Source of the DNA: Amoebophrya sp. A120
Lineage: Eukaryota; Protista; Dinoflagellata
Direction of reading: 5' to 3'
NCBI GenBank assembly: GCA_905178155.1
Contig: CAJINV010000003.1
Location: 2,681,740 to 2,745,739, forward strand
DNA: 64,000 bases
Under the pieces are notes generated by a model. That model did not search any database and had not been told where the DNA came from. It saw only the letters and a list, made by a program, of their open reading frames with translations. Position 1 is the first letter of the stretch. Every line of letters begins with the position of its first letter. Below, one piece after another: positions 11,801 to 64,000 of the stretch. The position numbers and the translations under genes are program-made.

Positions 11801-14800
11801 CCTGCATCGCGCGCGGAATTTTCGCGACGTGGGTCTCCGTTTCCAGCAGGGCCCGCTCGCTCGCCGACAACTCCCCGCGTCTGGTGGTCTTTGTGGTCTT
11901 CTTTGCTTGTTCTTTCAACATCCGGTTCATGTCGGAAGTAGTAGTACTGGATGCAATAGAAGATTTTTTCAGGGATCGGCGAACCGAGCTTGCGTCGTCG
12001 CTCCCGAAGAGCGTGCCCGTGAGGGAGAAGGGCGTGGTGGTCGTGGTCGTGGTCACGACCAGCGGCGCGCCCGTGGTTTCGCCCATCTCCGGTGGCGGGG
12101 TGGTGGTCTTGCTCAAGTCCACCGGGGGCAGTCCCTGGGCGACGAGCAGGGCGTTCTCGGTCTTCGCTTCAATCTCTTTCTCCAGGGCCAGCAGCTGCAG
12201 CGGCGTCACCGTGGACCGGAACTCCTGGATGTGCTTGGTCAGTGGGTCGATCAGGCTCGATACCGGGGCGTCCGCAATCGCCTGGAGTTCCGGGGCGATC
12301 GAGGAGCACTCGGACTCGTCGTAGCACCCGATCGCGATGGACACGGACACCGAGGACCCGCGCGGCGCGCCCGTGAGAAACCAGTAGGTCGTGTCCACGT
12401 CGATCGTTTCGTCTTGGATCGACGCCACCAGCCCCGCGTATGGCATTCTCAACTGTTACATTCTCAACTGTTACACGGATTTGTGATGCAGAATTGGCAT
12501 CAGCCTCCACTTGGTCAAGGTGCTTAGCATGACAAATTTTCGAAGGGCTAAACAGCGTGATAATCTGTGGAAAATTTGTGATGCGAAAGCTGCAATCAGC
12601 AATCTTGCCACTTTCACTGTTGCGATTCTTGCATCACAAATTCGTGTAACAGGTGAGAATGTAACATTTGAGAACGCCCTACCGCACTGATGGTCACTGT
12701 GTAGTTCGTGAACGGAGCCAGCTGCAATCCGGGCCGAAACGCCAAGGTTTCGCCGGAAAACACCAGCTCGCTGTCCAACTTCGTCAAGACGCGGGTGTTC
12801 TTGGCCGACGCGATCGTCGACGGTTCGAACTTCACCTCGCACGTCGCCACGCCGAAGAGGCTTTGTGATTATACATCGGCAATGATTTTCACTAGTAACA
12901 CTGTCCGACGAAGCATTATTTTATTCTCGTCCACAACCTCACTGCCGAAGTCGACCCCGCATTGTTGTTCACGAAAATTTTTACACGCAGCGTCCAGCTC
13001 TACTGGTGCCTCAGAAAATGGCTCTACTTTGGACAAGCCCAAGCCATTCTGTGAGGTGCGCAATACTATTACTAGTCCACATGAACATGGTTTGTCGTTG
13101 TACTTATGCCGCGGGCATCAAATAACACGAAAAGCTAAAGCTAAAGATAAACCATGTTGCACATCAGGTTGTAGAGAGTATACTCATAGGCCCCGGTGAA
13201 GCACGGGCCGGCTTTGATGGGTCGGTTGAAGGTGGCGTACATGTGGGCACTGGGGTCGCTATGCATCGCAAAAGCATCGCACTCATAGTAATTGCATTTA
13301 GTCTCTTTTGCAAGGGAGATCAGCATTGCACATTCAATTTGTAGTGCTGGGCTAATTTGTGATGCAATTTATACTAGTACGATGCTTTTGCAATGCATAG
13401 TCGCTGCTCGCGTGCGGGTCGGGCCCGGGCTGGGTCGCCACCAAACAGAGCCCTGCACAGGGTGTGGCCAGCTTGCCGTTGCGGTCCTCCGGAAGCAAGG
13501 TCGGCGCGAAGGCCGGCGTGGGGACCGTGACCCGGCTGTTGATGGTGTTCAGGGTGTCCAGGGACGGCCGGGCCAGCACCAGGAGCTGGTCGGGGTCCGA
13601 CATGGTGGAGCCGATGCGGTCCAGTAGGGAGTTGCGCACAAACGTTTCGGCCTGCTGCAGCTCGACCTGCGAGAGCTCGTCGAGCAGGCCGTTGACGGCC
13701 AGCTGTTGGCGCAACACGGCCTCGCCCTGCGGGTTGCTGCACGAGGAGGCGAAGTTCTTCAGCGCCTTGGCGCGCCGGGCCAGCTTGCCCATCACCCCGG
13801 GCGCGGAGTTCCGGCAGGTGTTGAACAGCTCCGAGTACTTGAGAATCATCGCCCGGCAGACGCCCGACCCGCACACCAGCGGGCGGTAGACGTCGTCCAC
13901 AGTTTCCACCCCCGCGTCGCTGATCACCACGTCCACCTCGCTGCCGCTGCCGTCCCAGTCCGCCAACCCAAGCTCCGCGAAGCGGCAGGTCCCGTGAAGA
14001 CTGTTCCACGCTTTCCTCATCTCGCCTATTTGTAGTTGGGGAGGAACATGTATGTCCACGACCACATGATGTGCGTGAACGATATCAATGCAAAACCTGG
14101 CCCTGGGAAGAAAAACCAACATGCACAGGCACAGCACGACGATGGAAAAAATGACAAAAAACTGACTTTTTTTTTGTGCAAGAAACTTTGTAGTACTTTG
14201 ACTGGGGCAGTTGCTGAGCAAGCGTTCCTCGGTCGGCTCACTAGTGGAGTTGACGTGCGCCGCGACACAGCTGCTGCGCGTCCACTTTTCCAGGTCCGCC
14301 CAGTCCCCGTAGCGGTGCTTTGTGTCCAGCAGCGAAACCATGTCCTGGCAGGCGGAGTCGCCCTCCGGGCATTTCACGGAGAGGGTCACCGCCGAGCGGA
14401 GCCCACTGGATTTTTGCCACACGGTGCACTTCGAGGGCGTGGGCGGCTCCACGGCGCCGGGAATTAACGGCAAAACCGTGGGCACGGATCCCCCCTTCAC
14501 CCAGGTCTCCTCCAAGTTGCCCACGCTGGCGTCCGCCAAAGAACGCCGCTTGATGAACCGCTCAAAATTTAAGCGCCGGACGCGGCGGGACTCGCACACG
14601 TATCCCGTCGTCGCCTCGTCGTCCGGGGTGCAGGTCTGTTTATGATTGGACAAAATGCAAAAACGCAGGGTCGACAAACCCGATTGGTATGGCTGTTTTG
14701 GCCCTCCCAGCGAACCGTTTGGACCTATGAAGATCCGGAGTCTCCCAATGCGCGGAGCAATTGTTGGAGCGCGAGTCGCCACACCCCTGCAATTGTCCGG

Positions 14801-17800
14801 GCAATTCTACGTTGCACCAAATTGAACCGGCGCGCGGTCGCCCAGCTGATAGATGCACCACCCGGGCCATAGGTTGCCCGACAAATAAATTGCCAACATG
14901 GGGGGGCCAAGATATTCGCAGCCCCTTGTCACGGCTCCCACAGGCCATTGATTATTATCACGGGCCCACGGACATACCAATAGCCCGAAAGCCGCCTTCC
15001 AATTTGCGGCGGGAAGCGCAGCCGCCCCAATGGCAGGGCGCTGCCAGAGCAAATTGCCGGCGCGCGCCCACCGCCTTTTGCATCCCCAAAGAAACGAAAC
15101 GGCAGGAACTGCAACACACCGGGGCGCCACTGCATGGTCGCTCGCCCCTGTGGCTGGCCGCGGGGCTTTGCGGCGGCGCAATGCAAAGAAACGGGCCCAC
15201 CGGGGGAGGCACGCGCCACACGCAAAACACACAAACGAGGAGGGCGCGCCCTTCTCTTCCACCATTAGCCGGACCCCAAACCCATCCCAGACGGCTCCCA
15301 CAACCAACAGCATTGCGGCTCTGGCCAGATTCTATTTGGCCGGGCGGCCAGAAATCGCGCACGTGCGAGAAAATGGCCAGCCGGCCCAATAGAATTCGGC
15401 ACCGGCCAAATAGAATTCGGCCACGATCCGAATTCTATTTCCCACCGACAACCGAACCGAAGGCCTCGGCCACGCGGTGCCGTGGTAGCTGGAACCCTGC
15501 TAGCACGATCCCCGGCCAGAGCGCCCGGGGCTGCATGGCCGCGCCGAGTCAAGCACACGTATCCCGTCGTCGCCTCGTCGTCCGGGGTGCAGGTCTGTTC
15601 GTTTATTTTTGGACGTCCAAGGAATCAAGTTGCTCAAATTCTTGGAATCACGTTGGTGACTGGAATCAAGTTACATGGAATCAAGTTGGATCCTGGAATC
15701 AAGTTGACTGGAATCAAGCATGACTTGCAAAAGCCCCCCCCTTTTCGCCGGAAAATTTCTCCGGACGCCTTCGAGAAACAGAATTCGCGCCAAGGAAGTC
15801 GATCAGTTTGGCGCGCTAGTGTAAGTTAGTAGTTCTTTTGAAGCTTCGCAAACCTCTGCAGCAGCACGAAGATCGACGGCACAAAACAAATTCCCCTGGG
15901 GGGGCAATCAAAGCCGGCTGACTTTGCGAGCGCGCTGACAACAAAAGCGAAAGCGCGCTGGCTTTGCACTTCGGGCTCGCCCAGAGGTCCCCTCAGGAAG
16001 GGACTAAGAAGTCCGCTCCTATTGGCTATATTTTACGGATAGGCTGGAGAAGTGGGAGAATGAAACTCCACTAACTTTTCGCACGCAGCGAGCTTTCGCG
16101 CTGCCTCCCGAAGACATTCAAAAAACCAAGTGAAAGCTCACTGGTTTTTTCACTCGGAGTGAGAAGTCGCCTACACATCCCGAAAGGCTTAGAGAAAAGA
16201 AGTGAGAAATCAGTGACTTCTCACTCTCGCGAAATCTTGACGGCTGGAAACCTTTTTGGAGTCCGACTCCAGAGTGAGAATTTTTCAAAAGTGAGAAATC
16301 AGTGATTTCTCACTACTTTTCTCGAAGGCACCCGAGCCCCGAAGAAATTTGGCGCTCGGGTCCCCCGACAGGAAACGTTGTTCCGGGCCTCCCGCACAGG
16401 AAAATTGTAGGCCTCTCTGAGCCGCGGAAAGTTTCGGGCCGAGAGGCCAGCTAAGGTGCATCCGGGACCCTTCGCCTCGTCGTCGCCTCGTCGTCCGGGG
16501 TGCGCCCTTGCGCCAGAGGCTCCGGCCTTAGCTAGGGGTCCCTGCCCTTGCCGCGTTGGCGGTGAGCACGGGCACCGGCAAACCGACGCACATTTCTTGC
16601 TTCGGCTTGGTTCTTACAAGTTGCCAACTTGTGTGGTTTGTGTGGTTGTCAAAGCGGCGCTTTGACAACCAAAGCGCGGCAAATGTGGCGGCCTGCAACC
16701 GAGTGGGGTCTTGATAACCAAGCGAGGACAATGCGGGCCGTGTAGTTAAGACAGACTGACGCAGCGCGCTTGCAGACACGCCGAAGGTCGCGCGCCTGCA
16801 CCCGAGTGCGTTTCAAAATGTGCGCCGGTTTGCCGCAATGTCCGTGGTGCCGCATCAGAGGGCTGCGGAGCCCTTCGACGGTCCATGTGCACAGCCCTCT
16901 GGCCTCTGGCCAAATCGGGACCATACCACCGGGGGAGGCCCTTCCGAAGCGGCCCAAATTGGGCCAGAGGACCCGACAGAGGACCCTCGGGCCCTCTGAC
17001 GGGTCCTCTGTAAAGTCCTCTGGTGAAATCGAGGCCGTGCCATCGGGGAAAGGCCGTCCGAGGCGGTCCAAATTGGGCCAGAGGACCCGACAGAGGACCC
17101 TCGGGTCCTCTGACGGGTCCTCTCCTAATTTTTGACCATGCTGCTAATGAAATCGAGGTAGTGCCGTCGGGGGAAGGTCCTCCGAGGCGGACCAAATTGG
17201 GCCAGAAAGTCCGCGAGGCAAAGTCCGCGCAAAATGTGCGCCGGTTTGCCGCGCCCCCAAATCCGGCGGCAAACAGCAACGTATCCCGTCGTCGCCTCGT
17301 CGTCCGGGGTGCAGGTCTGTTCGTTTATTTTTTCATGAAACTACCACTCGTGCTCGACGGGATCGGATCATGATCTGTGCATTACTGTACTTACTTTTGC
17401 AGTGCCACCCTTCTATCACGTGCTGCTTACATGTACATGTTGATCTTCTTTGAATAAAAAAAGAGAACAAGTCAAAAGTTTGACAGACGCGTTGTTTTCC
17501 TTTGCCACTTTACTAGAAAAAACTTACCTCGCTCGAACTGCAGGTGGCGGTAGCGCACACGTCCTCCTGGGTCTCGCAGTAGTCCCCGGTCCAGCCGTAT
17601 GCAAAGAAAAAAGTGTTAGAGTTACACATTGTGATGCAAAACATGCACCTAGTAAACCAAAGCGACACAAAGACCTCGAGGAACCATCCACAACCAAGAA
17701 CCTTGGAAAAGTGGAGTCCCCGAAGTCCTGGAGGTGAGATGCGAGGGGGACGCCTATTAGCTAAAGCACTAAAAATTAGCACTAAAGCAGAGGCACAAGG

Positions 17801-20800
17801 AAGCGGAGTAGTCAGAAATTAACTTGGAGCCGTCCTTACGGAGGACTCCAGCAACCTCAGTCCACCACTGCCCTCGCATTCACAAATGCAACAACACAAA
17901 AGTGCCGAAGCAACACCGGACGCTCATCCCACCGAAGGAACCACGGCAACTAAGATGCAAAACATGCAAGACAGATGGCCTCTGCCATGCGCAAAATGCT
18001 TGCGAGTCTCGTTTCGTGTTTTGCTTTATGATCTCTGCATTACAAGTTTTCTTCGTCATGCGATGCAACTTTGTAATGCTGAATTCACTGCAAATGTGTA
18101 ACTGTAACGCTTTTTTCCTTGGATAAGCCGGCTACACACGAGCACTGGTAGTTGCAGTCATCGTCGACGACCTGGCAGTAGCCGTCGTTCATGCATGGAT
18201 TATCCTCGCATACGGTGCAGTCGTTCTTGGGTGGCGGCGGAAGATTTGTGTCTGTCAGAATGTGGTTTATTTCACGTCGTTCTTGTACAAGTGCTACAGC
18301 AGGAGCTTCTTCGCTCGCCACTAAACATCATTTTGATTTTCATTTTGAACAAGGCCATCAATGAATTATTATCATGGGCATAGTCATGATAATATCTGTG
18401 ACCACGACGGGTACAGCAGCTGCTTTGAGGTCAAAGTCACCATCGCCACATGATATTTTATTTCCATCACCCAAAAGCAAAACTAAAACACCAGAAAGCC
18501 GTCAATTAGTCTAGTACTCTTCGGCACGCAGATGTCACCGCCGGTTGCGATTTCAAACCCGTCGGGACAGTGCAGGTGCTCGCAGCGTTTCCCGCCAAAC
18601 GAGACCGGGCAGTCGCATTTGAAGCCGTCGGGCGCATCGTGATCGAGATCGCAGGTGCCCCCGTGCTATCAAATGCAAGTGTCTGGGTCTGGGAGATTGC
18701 GAGACTTATCATGCTAGTCTGGCATGACTCTGAACTCTGTGTTGCATGGCCGCGAAGAGCTCCTCCCCCCTGTCATGCAAAAACGCAGTTCATCATGCGG
18801 AGTACGCAACTCAGAACCATGAAAAAGACTTGTCATGCTTGGCAGCCGCGCATCATAGTGAGTTCACTATTCCCTTTCTTGCATCACAAGTTTCCAGACC
18901 CAGACATATTTGCAATGCATACGTGCTGGCACGGGTTGGGGTCGCAGGCGTTCGTCTGCGCGACGGGGGAGCAGGTTTCCTGGCACAAGTCCTGCGAAAT
19001 GGAGGTTTCCTCGGCCGCGAACCCGGTGGGGCACTCGAGCTTGTCGCACGTGGGCCCGCTGAAAAAGCCCGTGCACTTGCAGGTGAAACCCGGCTCCCCC
19101 CGCGCCGCGGCCTCCGGGTTGCTGATGCACTCCCCGCCGCAGTTGCAGGGGTTGGGGTCGCAGTAGTTCTTGGGTTTGCACTGCTTGTCGCGGACGCAGG
19201 TGCGCTGCCCCCCGGCCGAAATGGTTTCCGTGAAGCACTCGTTGCACAAACACCGGTACCCGTAGTCGCCGACGCGGTTGGGGTGCCGCGAACTGTAGGA
19301 TCCGTCCAGGAGGGTCAGGTCCAGCGGTTCTCGACTCTTCCACGGCACACACTCCCCGTACCCGCACATGTTGTGATCACACACCGGGTCCTTGGAGCAG
19401 GTCTCCGGTTCCACCGACACGTCCAGCCGCCGCAGCGGGTGGTGCAGGATCTTGCTGAAGGCCTGCCGGAACGCCAGCTCTGCCTCTTTAATCGTGATGT
19501 CCGAACGCAGGTCGACGCCGGTAACCAGAAACTTTTGCGAAATCATCACCGATATGGCTTGCAAAATTATATGTGTCTGAGCGGTCATGGTCATCTGGAG
19601 CAAAGTTCGTGCTTAGAGGCAACATGTCACGTAAGAATCACAAATGTTACTAAGTATGTTCTTCTTATCCTTCTTGCAGACCCAGTAGACACATATATAA
19701 TTCAGCGTTGATACACGAGGACGCGGCGTTCTGGTGCGGGGTTACCAGGTGGCAGGTATCCTTGGAGGCATGCAACGCCTCAATCAACCGCTTGGAAGTG
19801 ACCAGAGACAAGGTGTGGTCCCGCCAGTGGACCTCCTCTTCGAATCGCGCCCGGGCCAGGGATATCAAATGCAAAAGTGTCTGAGTCTGGAAGATTCTGA
19901 GACTTGTCATGCATGTTTTGCACCTAGAAAACCAAAGCGACACAAAGACCTTTTTTTGGCTCGGACCCCCCACCCGCCTCAGCGATCTCGGATGTGAGTG
20001 TGCCCAGTCATGCGCAAAACCTGAAGAAGACATGACCAAAAAAAAACTTGGATGCTGCGGAGTCGCATGGAAAACAGAAAACTCCGAGCGGGCAACATCG
20101 CACATGCGCGACCGGCGGAAACGAGAAGTAGGGAGCAAGGGTGTCTAGTAAGGAGGAATGCAGGCCTCCCCCCCGTAGGGTTGAAACTGGTGAAAGTGGA
20201 ATAGTGCGACAGGCTTAAGATACTACGCGGACGAACCTCGAGGAACCATCCACAGCCAAGAACCTTGGAAAAGTGGGGTCCCCGAAGTCCTGGAGGTGAG
20301 CTGCGAGGGGGACGCCTATTAGCTAAAGCATGACCCAGGATGTTTTGCATGACGCGTTAGTTTTTTTTGCATGACGCATTTGCACGTCTATTAGTGATGC
20401 ATGTTTTGCATGACCCAGGATGTCTGTAATGCACGACCTAGCATCACAGACTTCTAGAGCGCTTCCTGATGCCTACTCCGCATGACAAACGCCCTCCCCG
20501 CGTAGTACAAACTGGACTCCTCTTGCTGGTCATGCAATACAGATTTTTTTAGAGTCCAAAATTAGCATCACAAGTTCTAACCTTCCAGACCCAGGCATTT
20601 TTGCATTTGATAAGGGACTGGCAGGTGGTAAAGGAGTTCCACGCGAGCTCCACGCGCCAGCGGCAAATTTATCCAAGAAAAAAACGTTGTTAGTGTAAAT
20701 TTGTGATGCGCAACATGCAAGATGATTGCGTCTGTCATGCTTCGCATGCATCGTAGGGTCCATCAACCGGCGTTTTCACGTACTATCTGCGCATGACAGG

Positions 20801-22629
20801 TTTTTGTTGTCATGCCAGACCAATTTGCAATGCTGTTCCACAAAAAATTTACACCTACAATGTTTTTTTCTTGGATAAAATTGGCGACACGCATAGTTTC
20901 TCCTTGATGTCGGGGTGAACCTGATCGCGTGCGGAGGACGAGTCGAAACGTTGCGTTTATTTTAGTCGGCGTTTGCCATACGTTGCCACCATCACCAAAC
21001 GGAATAAGGCACATCAAGCTCAGCTGCATCACCTTGCTGCTGCTGGTGGTAATCACTTACAAAAAATTCCATTCGTCATATCCCAGACAGCATGTATGTC
21101 TCGGGTGGCACAACTCACGACTGAAGTACCAATTCAAAATTTTTTTCTTGCTGTTGTAGTAGTTCGCCTGATGCATATCATTCAATTGGTTGATTATGAA
21201 GTATCTATACAACAAAAAGATTTGACTTTGATGACAGTTTCATACCGTGGCGAAGCTTCCCTTCTGCGTGTGCCACACCATTTCGTTCAAGTGAATCTGG
21301 TCCAAGCTACACGAATTGCTCACGTCCTCCAGTAGTGTTGCTGCTTCTTGGCACGTCGGACACCGGCCACAACTGAAGGGAAATGTGCCCTGGCACGGCC
21401 ACGCACCACTGTTTATTCAGCATATGGATTTGATGAAGTGTACGCACATTTATCATTCAGTCTTCTTGCATACAAAAAACGACCAACATCATATTTTTGT
21501 TAGAAGCGATGCTACCTTTATTTCGATTCGTCCCCCGATGAAGCAAAACTTTCCGTATAGTACAACTAAGTACCTCGGTGGTCTCTTGATACACTTCCCG
21601 AACCATGTGCGATCGTGCAATTGCAAGCTACCCACGAAGCCGTCGTTACACCGGCAGAAGCCTTTACTCAGTGTGGCGTGCAAGATGGGACAAGTGATCG
21701 GAGGGATCGTTGAACTAGTTGTCGTGGTCGACCTTATTTATTATCGTTGAATTCTTCAATGATTTTGTTTTTTGCAAGTTTGAATTTGAAAGTGATCAGC
21801 ACATATACTAGTGTAGTAGATTCTGTAGCCGGTTTATTTCTTGTGCGCCAGCGCGTAAGCCACGGTCCACCTGGTCTATTGATGATCAAGACCTAGTGCC
21901 GCACTGCTAGGGGGTCAACAATAATAGAATTCATTGTTTTGCAGAGCGCCTAGAAGATTTCTACTTAAGCACTTGTTACCCCGTGGCTTCACAGGCCTTT
22001 TTCTTCAGTTTCTCGTCGTCGAGCGTGGGTGTGACGTAGACTTTGTACATGAGCGGTTCGGCTCCGGAATGGGCCTCTTCCGTGAGCGCGACGTTTATGT
22101 CGCCACCCGCGAAGTCGCCGGTTCCCATCCCGGCCTCACTACTCCGTATGATGGTCGACAGCACCGCGCTGCCGTCGTCCTCAAACTCTCCCATGGTCAC
22201 CATGATTTTTCCGCCGGCGGAGGCTTCCAGGTCGGCGCCCAAATTCATCAGTGGCTCGCCGTTGCACTGCGGAACCGACAACGTGTAATCGAAAGTGGCC
22301 GGATCAAACGCCGGATTCAGGGTCCCGTAGGAAAACTTCATTTTCGTTAAACTCGCATGATCCGTGGCAACGGCAGTCCTGGACAGAACAGTTGTTGCGG
22401 CCAGGGTCGCCGTGCAGGCGGAGTAGAGAAAAGTGGTGGTCCTCCTCCTTCGTGGTAATTGTTCCATCGCTTCGCTGCTGCTGCTTCCGCGCCCTCGTCC
22501 GGGAGAAGGTGTTGCGCCCGGAGCCCGGCGCTGGTGTGCTGTGTTTGCCCTTGCGGATTTTTGTTTCATTTTTATCAGAACTGCTTCTGCAGCCGCACCA
22601 CCTGCCGGAGAGACGACCTGCGGCACCAT
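8811..22629 (-). CDS. Large multi-exon EGF-repeat protein with C-terminal multi-pass membrane region; single-gene extent tentative
   Basis: EGF units (CEDNPCMNDGYC...CSCVAGWTGDYC; CDPNPCNCGGEC...CKCTGFFSGPTC; CDPNPCQHGGTC...CDCPVSFGGKRC) become contiguous after introner removal. Hydrophobic helices at ~9560-11400. Confidence 0.6.
11106..11342. mobile_element. Degenerate introner, family A
   Basis: tatgccctgcaaatatg ... catatttgcatctgata; TSD cgccg/cgacg; removal gives CLLAV-VAMAYNG. Confidence 0.75.
11555..11713. mobile_element. Introner, family C
   Basis: tatcaagtgcaaaagtatcgtact ... tttgcaatgcgta; TSD ggtcc/gatcc; removal gives QLED-QNGFVDAAW. Confidence 0.8.
12439..12681. mobile_element. 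Introner, family B
   Basis: tatggcattctc ... gagaacgcccta; TSD ccgcg/ccgca; removal gives VTISA-GLVASIQ. Confidence 0.85.
13260..13399. mobile_element. Introner, family C
   Basis: tatgcatcgcaaaagcatcg ... cgatgcttttgcaatgcata; perfect TSD gtcgc. Confidence 0.9.
14594..17332. mobile_element. Stack of repeat-rich insertions separated by duplicated copies of an intron acceptor/exon start
   Basis: Target copies at 14594-14640, 15553-15610, 16478-16503 (partial) and 17279-17332. Internal tggaatcaag repeats, agtgagaa palindromes and ~114-bp tandem units. Confidence 0.75.
17598..18125. mobile_element. Introner, family D, carrying a nested insertion
   Basis: tatgcaaagaaaaaagtgttagagttacaca ... tgtgtaactgtaacgcttttttccttggata; TSD agccg; removal gives CSCVAG-WTGDYC. 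Confidence 0.9.
17648..17953. mobile_element. Nested element N1 inside an introner, 15-bp TSD
   Basis: gatgcaaaacatgca at 17633-17647 and 17954-17968; ~120 bp near-identical to N2. Confidence 0.8.
18667..18921. mobile_element. Introner, family A
   Basis: tatcaaatgcaagtgtctgggtctgg ... ccagacccagacatatttgcaatgcata; TSD cgtgc; splits the EGF motif PCQH-GGTC. Confidence 0.92.
19553..19713. mobile_element. Degenerate introner, family A-like
   Basis: tatggcttgcaaaattatatgtgtct ... agacacatatataattcagcgttgata; diverged TSD accga/cacga; frame restored NAASS-VMISQK. Confidence 0.6.
19863..20612. mobile_element. Introner, family A, carrying a nested insertion
   Basis: tatcaaatgcaaaagtgtctgagtctggaag ... 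cttccagacccaggcatttttgcatttgata; TSD aggga. Confidence 0.9.
19923..20396. mobile_element. Nested element N2 inside an introner, 14-bp TSD
   Basis: atgcatgttttgca at 19909-19922 and 20397-20410; shares the cctagwaaaccaaagcgacacaaagacct start and the ...cctattagctaaagca block with N1. Confidence 0.8.
20670..20877. mobile_element. Introner, family D
   Basis: tatccaagaaaaaaacgttgt ... acaatgtttttttcttggata; TSD aaatt. Confidence 0.88.
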
Positions 22630-56294: not shown

Positions 56295-59200
56295 TTAAGC
56301 CTTCGCTTTTGCTTTTGCCGCTTTTTCCAGCTTCTTTCGCTCCGCCTTGGAAAGCTCCTTTTCTCCGCACACCTCTTTCAGGCGCTTCATTTCCGCGACC
56401 GCTGCCTGAATTTCCTCATCGGAGGCCTTGTCTGCTTTCAATTTTGCGACGAGGTCCTTCGCCGCCTGCAGCTTCGCGAGGTCCTCCGGAGAAGCCTGTG
56501 GCTGCGCTGCAGCCGGGTCCGCCGCTGGGGCTGCCGCAGCGGCCGCTTCCTTGCCCTTTGCGCCCTGCAACTTGCTTGGATCAACTTTGCCCGCGATGTT
56601 GCTCATTGCCTTTGACTTCCCGTCCGGAATTTTAATGAGAACCTGAGAATGAAGATCATCGTCATATCGATCAACATGCCAGGATCGTCAATAAGACCTC
56701 ACCAAACACATGCTTCAATCAAGAAGTAGCAGATGAGGTGGACTTTGTCAACGTCTACGCTACCATCTACAACTAGTAAATCCTTTCAAAACAAATCAAC
56801 ATGACAGAACTATATTACCATGGGTTGTCCCTCCGGAAAGGCCGGAGAGTCACAGATAAAGAACCCGATGCGCTCAAGCTGGACAATGTCGCCCTTGCTC
56901 ACGTTTTTCAAGGGGGCTTCGCCGACTGCTACGGTGTCGAAAATGGTTTGTGGGTTGATAAAATCTTCGAATTTGTCGTCCTCGTCCAGTTTTGCTTTTG
57001 AGATCAAATGGTCGTATTCCCGCAGAACCACCTCCGTTTCGCGGCCCGTGGCGGCGACCCAGTGCAGCTTTTTCTTTGTGTCCTTCACGCTTCCTGTTAA
57101 TAGATGACGAGGTCAGTTGCTTCGGATTTGAATTTGATACGGATGGAAGGAAGTAGCAGCAGCGCCAGCGGCCACGAGACGGACTACACTCGCTGGCACC
57201 ACACTAACTTTAACTCACAGACGTGAGGAACTACACGAATACTAAAAACAGCAACAAGGCTACTAGTACTTGAGCACCATCATTTCAATTGCATATACCT
57301 TCCAAGTGCAGCTTGGCTTCGAGCAGGGTGACTTTGCCAGCCGCGTCCTTCGTAACCTTTTCGACAAGGACATTTCCCCAGTGTAATAACGTAATCTGTT
57401 CCTGTTCCGCGATCTCCGCGGCGTCGGCCGCCTCTAGAAAGACCGAGGCACCGTACCAAAGCGGCTTCTGGCCGGACAGCACGCCCTCCTGGCCACACTT
57501 GGGGTGCAGGTTGGTCATGCCCACGTAGGACTCGGCGGGCACACCGGAAATCTTCAACGTCACCGGGGCGGTGATGGCCGCGTACCGGGCCGCCTGCGGG
57601 TCGATGATCTGGCGGTTGAGCACCCAGATCTTGTCCCACTCCATCAGCACGTCCCGCTTGCTGGCCCCCTGCGTCTTCATGAACTCCTGCAGCGCCTGCA
57701 CGGTCATCCCCCGACGGAGGATGCCCTTCACCGTGGGGAACCGGGGGTCGTCCCACCCCGAAACCACCTTGTTGTCCACGAACCAAGTCAGCTTCCGCTT
57801 GGACAACACCGTGTGCGTGAACTGCGTCTTGGAGAACTCGTACAAAATGGTCTTGCCCACGTTCGCCTTCTGTTGCACCCAGTAGTACATCTGGTCCCGG
57901 TCCTTGTACTCGATGGTCCGCAGGGAGTGCGACACACCCTCTATCGCGTCCACAATCGGACACGCAAAGTCGTAGGTTGGGTAAGCCTTGTACTTCGTGC
58001 CGTGCCTAGGGAGAGTGAAAAGCAATAGAATTATTATGTCGTTGAAAATGAATACACAAACTTAAATCTAGGATCGTATAGTCGATTTAGTTGGCCTTGA
58101 ATTGGGGGTCGTCTCTTCTCATCTAAAAATGGAGAAAGTGAATAAAGAAATTGATGATTATGTGCTACGTATAGATACAATCTTCGTTGTGTGGAGGCAG
58201 CAGCTCCTGTGACGCAAGGGCAAGAATCGAATTCGAAAGGATCGAAAAAAATAAAACCCAGCACGGGTTACTAGTGTCACTTACCTGTGATGGGGCACGT
58301 CGGTTTTGCAGCGGTAGAAGACGGGGTCGCGGAGGCACTTGACTGGGTCCTTCATGTTCATTTTTCCGCGGACACAGCAGGTCAGGCCGGTCTTGGTCCC
58401 GGCGAGCATTTCCTTCCAAAGCTCTAAATTTTTCTCGACGCTGAACTTCCGGCATGCGCTTTCGACGCCGTTGTCACGCTCGTCGCGCATCTTCTCGACG
58501 GGAGTGTCGTCTACGTACGCGTCACCGTTCTTCAGCAACTTCTCCATCAGTTCCTGCAGCTTGGGAAAGTAGTCCGAGGTGTGACTCACGAAGTCCGGAA
58601 CGATGCCCAGGCTCTTGCTATCCTCCAAGATCGTGTCTTCGAACTCTTGCTTTTCCTGGTGTTGAGATAAATCAGACATCGCATACTCTCTTTTTCTATT
58701 CTATCTTCTTTCTTATCCTTTCTCATGGAAAAGAAAACCAATGCATGTTCATGGTGGGTCGCGGCGATGAAAGAATCAAACTCTGAAGCGGAGTTAGATC
58801 ATTCCGGGCGGACCAGAACAAAAACAAACTCGACGTTGTAGACTACTTACCTTGCTGGGGTTCGTATCGTCGAATCGGATGATGAGCTTTCCCTCATACA
58901 TGCGCGCATAAGCGTTATTCAGCAGCGCGGCCTTAGCGTGGCCGATGTGCATGTAACCACTGGGCTCGGGGGGGAATCGCGTGCACACTTTGCCCATGAC
59001 AGCGTTCGGCAACTTGCCTTCAATATTTGCTTCGTCCTTCCCCTTAGCACCGCCGCCGGTAGATGATGAGGCATTGTTTTTGTTGTTCATCTGCGCCGCG
59101 GCCCCTGGTTTGTTTCCGCCTTGCGGTTTACTATTTCCGGACGAGGTGGTACTGGTACTGAAGGCGAAAGGCCGCTGCCGCTGAAGTGCGTGGATGTGGA

Positions 59201-59671
59201 GTGCCCAGCGGTAGGTGGAGGGCAATTTCTGCATATCTGGGATCTTACCGTTCAACTTGGCCAAACAATCCAGATCGGCAGGCGAAAAATCCGCACCGTT
59301 CTCCACGTACGAGCGGTCCTTGATAAACTTTTCGAAATCCGTATCCTGAGTAAAAACGTCCTCACCCCATAGTTGTAATGCTAATCCGTATGCTGATAAT
59401 GTTTCTCATGCGCAGCCCCATGAGAAGCATCTTCTAGCCATGTTTCGGAATTTGTCATGCTCCAACAAGCATGATATGCTAGATCTGTGATGCTGCTGGA
59501 CCAGCTAAACAGCATTACACTTCGAGGCAAAACTTGTAATGCACAACAACCAAAGCTGGCTGATTTGTCTAGCAGATTGCCCATCTTGACTCTGGGGTGG
59601 GGACGTTTTTCTTTAGGATAATCCGGCGTACCGGGATTACCGACCGGAGGTCCACTCGCGGCTGCCGTCAT
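56295..59671 (-). CDS. GluRS: Cytosolic glutamyl-tRNA synthetase with N-terminal GST-C-like and C-terminal WHEP-like extensions
   Basis: [21 protein letters not shown] (HIGH), [46 protein letters not shown]. Confidence 0.95.
59342..59620. mobile_element. Introner, family E, in GluRS; inverted relative to the copy at 40760
   Basis: tatcctgagtaaaaacgtcc ... ggacgtttttctttaggata; TSD atccg; removal gives [14 protein letters not shown]. Confidence 0.92.
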
Positions 59672-63435: not shown

Positions 63436-63621
63436 TATAGCAGAGAAAAATATTAGCAGAGATTTAAGAGCACGAATGTTGAAAGTGATCTTCTATAACT
63501 CCTATTGCTGAGCGGTGCGAGTTAAAATTTTGCAACGGGAAAGAAAATCGCCCACGTCGACAATTTTTTTGCAATTTTCAAACTTTCTAAAGCTGTCGCG
63601 ATTTGCGAAATCGCTCACCGC

Positions 63622-64000
63622 CCAACGGCCAACGGCAACCGGCCAAATCGCAAACGGCCAACGGCCAAATCGCAAACGGCCAACGGCCAAATCGCAAACG
63701 GCCAACGGCCAACGGCCAACGGCCAACGGCCAACGGCCAACGGCCAACGGCCAACGGCCAACGGCCAGCGGCCAAATCGCAAACGGCCAACGGCCAACGG
63801 CCAACGGCCAACGGCCAACGGCCAACGGCCAGCGGCCAAATCGCAAACAGCCAACGGCCAAATCGCAAACGGCCAACGGCCAAAACGCAAACGGCCAGCG
63901 ACCAAATCGCAAACGGCCAACGGCCAACGGCCAAATCGTAAACGGCCAGCGGCCAAATCGCAAACGGCCAACGGCCAAATCGCAAACGGCCAACGGCCAA
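63622..64000. repeat. Minisatellite of GGCCAAC units interspersed with GGCCAAATCGCAAAC
   Basis: Directly visible tandem array running off the window end. Confidence 0.95.

Follow-up and report, generated by a model that had tools for sequence, protein, structure and literature searches.

Sequence-specific retro-insertion into another transposon is known from Xenopus, where Tx1L inserts in the DNA transposon Tx1D, a habit read as the use of a safe haven (PMC4494074, PMC1950540, PMC6719617; here and throughout, the cited papers are drawn on in excerpt). In crocodilians, the short interspersed element (SINE) SINEU-3 occupies the non-autonomous DNA transposon Mariner-N4_AMi, which flanks 313 of its 347 copies, with a duplication of 16 bp (PMC4494074). 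The introners of Amoebophrya create introns; they have inverted repeats and splice sites of non-canonical type, and short direct repeats span their exon boundaries (PMC7789003, PMC12130899). Here we describe N, a short non-coding element inserted inside introners of this kind, from two copies (N1 and N2) in 64,000 nucleotides of the Amoebophrya sp. A120 assembly (contig CAJINV010000003.1, positions 2,681,740 to 2,745,739; hereafter the window, with positions counted from its first letter). The reading that we favour, with reasonable rather than strong confidence, is that N is a site-specific retroelement, non-autonomous, which a putative partner enzyme copies by target-primed reverse transcription.

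N resembles SINEU-3 in being short and non-coding, in preferring an abundant non-autonomous element with terminal inverted repeats (TIRs), and in its long duplication; however, SINEU heads derive from U1/U2 small nuclear RNA (snRNA), whereas N matches no Rfam family, has as its target a palindromic subunit of several families, and lives in genic introns (PMC4494074). Tx1L, which shares with N its sequence-specific retro-insertion into another transposon, is autonomous, carries an apurinic/apyrimidinic (APE) endonuclease and uses one host family, whereas N has no open reading frame and its enzyme is only putative (PMC4494074, PMC1950540, PMC6719617). The R2 system and the R2/R1 short internally deleted elements (SIDEs) offer a further likeness in their short non-autonomous form, structured 5' part and recognised 3' end, with 14-bp duplications at the R1 site, but their target is ribosomal DNA (rDNA) and they carry a 5' ribozyme resembling that of hepatitis delta virus (HDV), of which none was found in N (PMC3414825). 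Like them, N could be co-transcribed with its host, N1 and N2 both lying sense to the gene. Dada transposons are also target-specific without TIRs, and occur in the alveolate Perkinsus, but make 6-7-bp duplications, target RNA genes and use a DDE transposase (PMC3706591). The initial annotation of this DNA knew of no description of such an element, which holds in part: Tx1L/Tx1D and SINEU-3/Mariner-N4 are close precedents, whereas no element targeted to introners or to an introner-shared motif was found described in the open literature (Repbase and subscription papers lay outside this scope). The word 'nested' is absent from the main texts of PMC7789003 and PMC12130899, and in the excerpted parts of PMC9860276 secondary insertion of transposable elements into introns appears just as a filtering problem. 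N is probably a variation on a known strategy, that of a retroelement targeting a transposon.

Genes in the window (~52% G+C) are interrupted by 140-310-bp TIR elements with a TAT start, an ATA end, long TIRs and mostly a 5-bp direct repeat, an anatomy that fits the Amoebophrya introners of PMC7789003, whose non-canonical splice sites the hosts of N share as well; 21 were retained (8% of the window), one having been added and four weak calls dropped by eye. As the initial annotation had proposed, introners of two different families carry the same element, N1 in family D and N2 in family A (Table 1), and its estimates of a shared left end, a ~92-bp block and a deficit of ~285 bp with an acct join were close: the left ends agree at 28 of 29 nt, the block (N1 17673-17768, N2 20235-20330) at 93 of 96 nt (92 nt without ACCT), and 287 bp of N2 are missing from N1, with ACCT at the join. 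Other copies read AGACCT at that position (a 38-nt contig, 17671-17708, 0 differences), so the microhomology in the parent of N1 was probably 6 nt. The flanking repeats are exact at the annotated 15 bp (N1) and 14 bp (N2), or 14 bp in both if the G at 17954 is assigned to the element. Removal of N1 with one 14-bp repeat leaves a 207-bp host, of which a family D sibling at 20670-20877 (208 bp) is 66% identical; the same operation on N2 leaves a 262-bp host with three siblings of 262, 266 and 262 bp at 83-85% identity. Since the two hosts align at 52% overall and each duplication matches its own host, N1 and N2 are two separate insertions. Both lie 50-60 bp inside the TIR of the host introner and their ends do not coincide with splice boundaries: N itself is not an introner.

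At its truncated end N2 stops at GCA, and 66 bp follow that consist of host junction sequence (16 + 14 nt), 13 nt copied from the filler itself and 7 nt from the end of the element, the copies from the flank carrying 3-4-nt microhomologies; 20331-20396 is filler and not element (the insert including filler is 19923-20396). Nothing else in the window significantly matches the N2 interior, and no other N-like insert there is flanked by a TGCA-ended 13-bp repeat.

Evidence from outside the window comes from contigs of public sequencing runs (DNA: X1, X2, X7, X9; spliced RNA: X5; raw RNA: X12). X1, X2 and X7 represent a single sample, which may be the window's own source; copy and junction counts hold among the matches listed, and read depth is no direct copy number. 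With N1 alone as the query, 11 (X1), 9 (X2), 34 (X7) and 0 (X9) records matched, the blank in X9, an estuary metagenome, being no proof of absence. The left junction of N1 is spanned by a contig at single-copy depth (17350-17700, 0 differences; X1 and X2) and the right junction of N2 by another (20271-20423, 0 differences; X1). For the right junction of N1 no bridging contig is found among the matches listed, and contigs of the commoner variant, or of the N tail, all end at 17944-17950. Exact-pattern scans returned 0 loci for the fixed end and block in metagenome contigs, and 0 for the fixed end in viral contigs. N motifs are absent from the supplementary files searched (12 of the 14 of PMC12130899, not 13 and 14, and one each of PMC7789003 and, in part, PMC9860276), as is an introner control motif, so that these blanks say little.

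Further copies share one end and one kind of site. Four contigs in X2, all listed, cover the fixed end, and four in X1 (2 listed, 2 from depth bins) cover this 28-29-nt tag; in each run 4/4 continue into TGCA. Those of X2 are N1, one matching from 17634 with 5 differences, one matching from 17644 (TGCA), and a 1,883-nt contig at single-copy depth that matches 17634-17670 (2 differences) and then reads TGCAAAAAATGCA, leaving ~22 nt of element between 14-bp repeats, with 1-nt microhomology at the junction. An X7 flank ends TTTGTCATGCATATTT ahead of TGCA, an A-family context, and an X1 flank ends AAATTTGCA ahead of ATGCA. Exactly four contigs per run (X1, X2), all starting at or before TGCA, reproduce the depth bins to 0.1, and depth at 19950, where the match extends into the interior, is the sum of those contigs only (45 = 16.8 + 28.2; 96.3 = 32.4 + 63.9). 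The readable spacers between ATGCA and TGCA are AAACA, TGTTT, AAAAA and TATTT. The insertions total four, probably five; the same fixed end recurs at every junction seen and none lies at another site type, with the proviso that a 29-nt tag-only match with an unrelated flank, or a diverged tag, could go unseen. The 13-15-bp duplication at ATGCA-N5-TGCA is seen in 3 copies and the left junction only in 1-2 more; at N1, at N2, in the X7 insertion and in one X1 flank, the tag points toward TTGYV. Introner residence is certain for N1 and N2 and very likely for the X7 insertion. Depth ratios suggest ~4-5 tags, 4 tails and at least 6-8 blocks. Insertion directly after the second TGCA, proposed from two sites, holds at all four to five junctions, now independent sites, and sequence-specific insertion of N after TGCA in (TTGYV)ATGCA-N5-TGCA is supported.

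This target is concentrated in introners. TTGYVATGCA-N5-TGCA occurs five times in the insert-free window against 0.0 expected (100 shuffles), always within introners, and two of the five sites are occupied by N. Bare TGCA-N5-TGCA has seven window sites, of which the two outside introners are both empty; ATGCA-N5-TGCA covers 8e-5 of oriented positions and 1e-3 of those inside introner DNA. TTGYVATGC is found 66 times, 57 of them inside introners (5 expected), and 13 of 14 ATGC-N7-GCAT palindromes (GTCATGC-N7-GCATGAC-type) are within introners. N reaches different introner families because the families share this palindromic subunit. Both motifs recur several times per element (for example at 18708, 31073, 35341 and 49342) across introner families with different terminal repeats, and the subunit is possibly a transposase or splicing signal. 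The target palindrome folds as a hairpin. A symmetric cut of 13 bp, made behind TGCA on both strands, together with 1-2 nt of microhomology, may account for the duplication. The 13-bp duplication cores of N1 and N2 are, as annotated, the same motif in opposite orientations, being exact reverse complements, but this is incidental, other copies having AAAAA or TATTT as spacer.

Table 1. Positions in the window of the N inserts, their target duplications, host introners and host gene.
Feature	Position	Strand	Remarks
Host introner of N1, family D (TAT...ATA TIR)	17598..18125		agccg direct repeats 17593-17597 and 18126-18130; 207 bp without N1
Left target duplication of N1	17634..17647	plus	ATGCA-AAACA-TGCA; 15 bp if 17633 is included
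N1	17648..17954	minus	307 bp: fixed end, 287-bp internal deletion, structured domain; minus strand predicted to be the RNA, with a likely almost complete 5' end
Fixed end (28-29-nt tag)	17648..17676	minus	predicted 3' end of the RNA
Structured domain	17673..17954	minus	four capped hairpins (three C(UUCG)G, one GNRA) and a long stem
Right target duplication of N1	17955..17968	plus	
Host introner of N2, family A	19863..20612		aggga direct repeats 19858-19862 and 20613-20617; 262 bp without N2
Left target duplication of N2	19909..19922	plus	ATGCA-TGTTT-TGCA
N2	19923..20330	minus	408 bp: fixed end, T7 (minus-strand A-tract, 19951-19957), unstructured interior, 96-bp block; truncated at GCA microhomology with target
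Filler at the truncated end of N2	20331..20396	plus	66 bp
Right target duplication of N2	20397..20410	plus	
Part of host gene	17528..21060	minus	cysteine-rich, EGF-like repeats by eye; no Pfam match for the exon frame tested

The structured domain of N has an RNA-like fold. On the minus strand, 17673-17954 folds with a z of -4.07 (0/200 shuffles as good) versus -2.21 (4/200) on the plus strand, and CTTCGG, with a window density of 0.4 per kb, occurs 3 times in the 307 nt of N1. The interior of N2 is unstructured. Minus-strand order is structured domain, interior, A7-11 and 28-nt tag. The A-tract measures 7, 9 or 11 among contigs, and the order of tag, A-tract and interior recurs in several contigs with homologous interiors; beside the block, the contigs diverge into five distinct loose ends, located at 17663-17671 or within N2. 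A related repeat at higher depth (231, 367; X1 record 8, X2 record 16) matches 17727-17747 and 17846-17885 at a spacing of 97 versus 98 nt, shares the paired arms of the domain, and extends at least 255 nt further. A 7-bp stem is retained in it with two changes, one compensatory and the other compatible (by eye, in a single loose-end sequence), and it may be the autonomous partner family of N. Rfam searched with 17500-20700 (E up to 10) gave no family, just two chance microRNA matches at E 7-8. We found no HDV-like ribozyme (0 matches to our own descriptor, run without a positive control, and no Rfam ribozyme) and no hammerhead by Rfam, one loose core match on the N2 plus strand having no closing pair by eye. 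An origin of the head from U1 or an Sm site was rejected, there being no Rfam match and the AUUUGUG stretch not being conserved in the higher-depth relative; U1 is reported as undetected in Amoebophrya (PMC7789003). A spliced-leader origin of TTTTGGCTC, which follows the tag, was considered and rejected, since TTTTGGCTC is not conserved in other copies.

Both inserts lie in introns of one gene, and both (2/2) are sense to its transcript. Its frame is open across four introner junctions once each introner and one direct repeat are removed, and introner retention brings stops in all frames. The X5 RNA contig record 17 (4,251 nt) matches consecutive pieces at 18126-18251, 18518-18661, 18922-19548 and 19715-19857 with 0 differences, each beginning and ending exactly at the expected boundary, and its depth accounts for the cover of the next exon from 17528; its joints over the two N-bearing introns are deduced from piece ends and depth. 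That the enlarged introns are spliced, as had been suggested, thus has partial backing: one RNA contig skips the positions of both, but X5 is a different sample in which the inserts are perhaps absent. Predicted terminal-stem pairing of the introns is 0.85 and 0.91, the same with or without N. In the raw RNA run X12 four reads match, all on introner parts, and are uninformative for splicing or expression. The same RNA contig skips an intron at 19549-19714 with GT...GG ends on the minus strand, which looks like a decayed TAT...ATA element.

Inserts of ~22, 307 (internally deleted) and 408 nt share one end, and two of the three copies seen at both ends are truncated, both retaining the tag. Features of a SINE- or SIDE-like element without long terminal repeats (non-LTR) are present: a fixed 3' end with variable 5' truncation (in only three copies seen at both ends), a long duplication at a specific sequence, and microhomology or filler at the 5' junction. 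Taken together, the fixed end, truncation with intact duplication, 14-bp repeats, polarity and RNA-like fold fit target-primed reverse transcription, which is favoured by the ~22-bp copy between 14-bp repeats, the flank-templated filler and the strand bias of the fold. Microhomology and flank-templated extra bases are described at the 5' junctions of long interspersed elements (PMC4760211), 5' truncation in retroelement insertion (PMC13580325), and 14-bp duplications as typical of R1 (PMC3414825). The initial annotation's proposal of a non-LTR element or its SINE is upheld by the fixed end, the ~22-bp copy, the filler and the fold, and weakened by its failure as a strict SINE: N has no tRNA, 5S, 7SL or snRNA head, and its A7-11 lies 28 nt internally, with no terminal A-tail or simple repeat. 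Nor, with no enzyme seen, is N assignable from its sequence to the Tx1 clade. A miniature inverted-repeat or other non-autonomous TIR transposon was rejected on its 5/6 matching terminal bases only, the lack of a right end in 2/3 copies and a duplication of 13-15 bp rather than at most 10. Helitrons are recognised by a 3' CTRR, insertion in AT and no duplication; the minus strand of N ends CTAGG, yet a 14-bp duplication is present.

By the favoured mechanism, the RNA would be a minus-strand molecule of ~600 nt with a structured 5' domain, variable interior, A7-11 and 28-29-nt 3' tag. A partner endonuclease would nick after the distal TGCA, the 3'-OH priming cDNA from the tag, and a second nick on the other strand, 13-14 bp away after the mirror TGCA(T), would yield the duplication. 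The cDNA would stop after 22, 408 or all nucleotides, or jump at a 4-6-nt microhomology (N1), and would be joined by annealing and filler synthesis off the flank (N2). Because N inserts 50-60 bp inside the TIR, the intron is predicted to keep its end-to-end stem unaltered, and N would leave with the spliced intron, escaping harm.

Several observations weigh against this mechanism. The A-tract is 28 nt internal to the end rather than terminal; the depth of the internal block exceeds that of the tag, a gradient opposite to that of simple 5' truncation if no diverged tags were missed, and 29-nt tag-only matches with unrelated flanks may escape detection; ARAGORN finds 0 tRNA genes, and no tRNA, snRNA or 7SL head is seen in N; and no reverse transcriptase, endonuclease or transposase family is detected in the window (0/38 long frames, plus a motif scan). 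N1 and N2 lie 2.3 kb apart in one gene, with a chance of 0.2-0.9% (10-20 copies in ~106 Mb; the window was chosen for holding both), which suggests local hopping. Such hopping is a habit of DNA transposons, and when a DNA element has been excised and repair of the gap aborts, one-ended fragments with filler can result. The internal A-tract, the higher block depth and the two neighbouring copies are left unexplained by target-primed reverse transcription.

We consider it unlikely, if still a serious contender, that N is instead a non-autonomous cut-and-paste transposon with minimal ends and a Dada-like preference for palindromes, its short and one-ended copies coming from aborted post-excision gap repair. 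The proximity of N1 and N2, the palindromic, hairpin-forming target, the internal deletion at microhomology, terminal bases inverted at 5 of 6 positions, and tail contigs that all stop at 17944-17950, so that the right end may be fixed too, would suit such a transposon, as would the target specificity of Dada without TIRs (PMC3706591). The 13-15-bp duplication, however, exceeds both the 6-7 bp of Dada and the 4-10 bp of the DDE groups with long duplications (PMC3706591), both truncated copies retain the same end, no real TIR is present, insertion has one polarity at 3-4 sites, and a strand-biased RNA fold and an A-tract would have no role. Little credence attaches to another retroelement class (Penelope-like, or with an undescribed reverse transcriptase) or to a chimera, in which reverse transcription begins on a 28-nt primer template before the enzyme jumps onto a structured, polyadenylated RNA. 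Penelope-like elements are marked by a GIY-YIG and reverse transcriptase partner, pseudo-LTRs and a hammerhead ribozyme; neither a hammerhead nor an HDV-like fold was found by Rfam or by our patterns, and the recurrent order of tag, A-tract and homologous interiors makes N by now a fixed family, whereas the A-tract between tag and remainder, the five loose ends beside the block, the tag-only copy and the documented template jumps of R2 (PMC3414825) speak for this group of readings. Least credible are untargeted repair patches, local duplication or misassembly. The copies are neighbours that share alleles absent from the majority contig, and the right junction of N1 is unbridged among the matches listed; against this stand different hosts, each with its own matching duplication, contigs that span junctions, and another 2-3 loci where this motif carries the same end. 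Duplication or assembly error, named at the outset as what might undo the proposal, is largely refuted.

A bolder extension, which we hold to be doubtful, would place N and its more abundant relative in a retroelement lineage of their own, so far undescribed, with an endonuclease that recognises the palindromic subunit shared by the introner families of this genome. N would be promoterless, transcribed within the host pre-mRNA and carried out in the excised hairpin intron, from which a structured 5' RNA of a novel class, perhaps self-cleaving, would free it.

Elsewhere in the window, 14578-17321 is non-coding, with a 26-nt motif in four exact copies ~0.8-1 kb apart and no Pfam match in the frames tested, and 16903-17206 holds 114-nt tandem units with internal inverted repeats. 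A ~52-nt motif with GGGTTTAA-like cores occurs seven times at 1048-2837, in 90/145-nt tandem units; a tandem array of 7- and 22-nt units (CCAACGG-type) at 63576-64000 runs off the window end. A class I Glu/Gln-tRNA synthetase gene (PF00749, PF03950) lies at 57285-59405 on the minus strand, with an introner at 59342-59620.

With N, the range of safe havens, which includes rDNA, snRNA genes and individual transposon families, would also take in a motif common to intron-making transposons, letting a mobile element live within the genes of an intron-dense genome. N singles out the GTCATGC-N7-GCATGAC-type subunit as conserved among these non-canonical introns, themselves still unexplained; that they likely accept an additional 320-490 bases offers a natural test of their splicing. 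The favoured mechanism predicts that a site-specific enzyme recognising a short palindrome is still to be found, along with an RNA fold that is conserved yet outside Rfam. If the new-lineage view were true, N would be parasitic and would gain targets as introns are gained, and its target would point to the motif on which introner transposition or non-canonical splicing depends.

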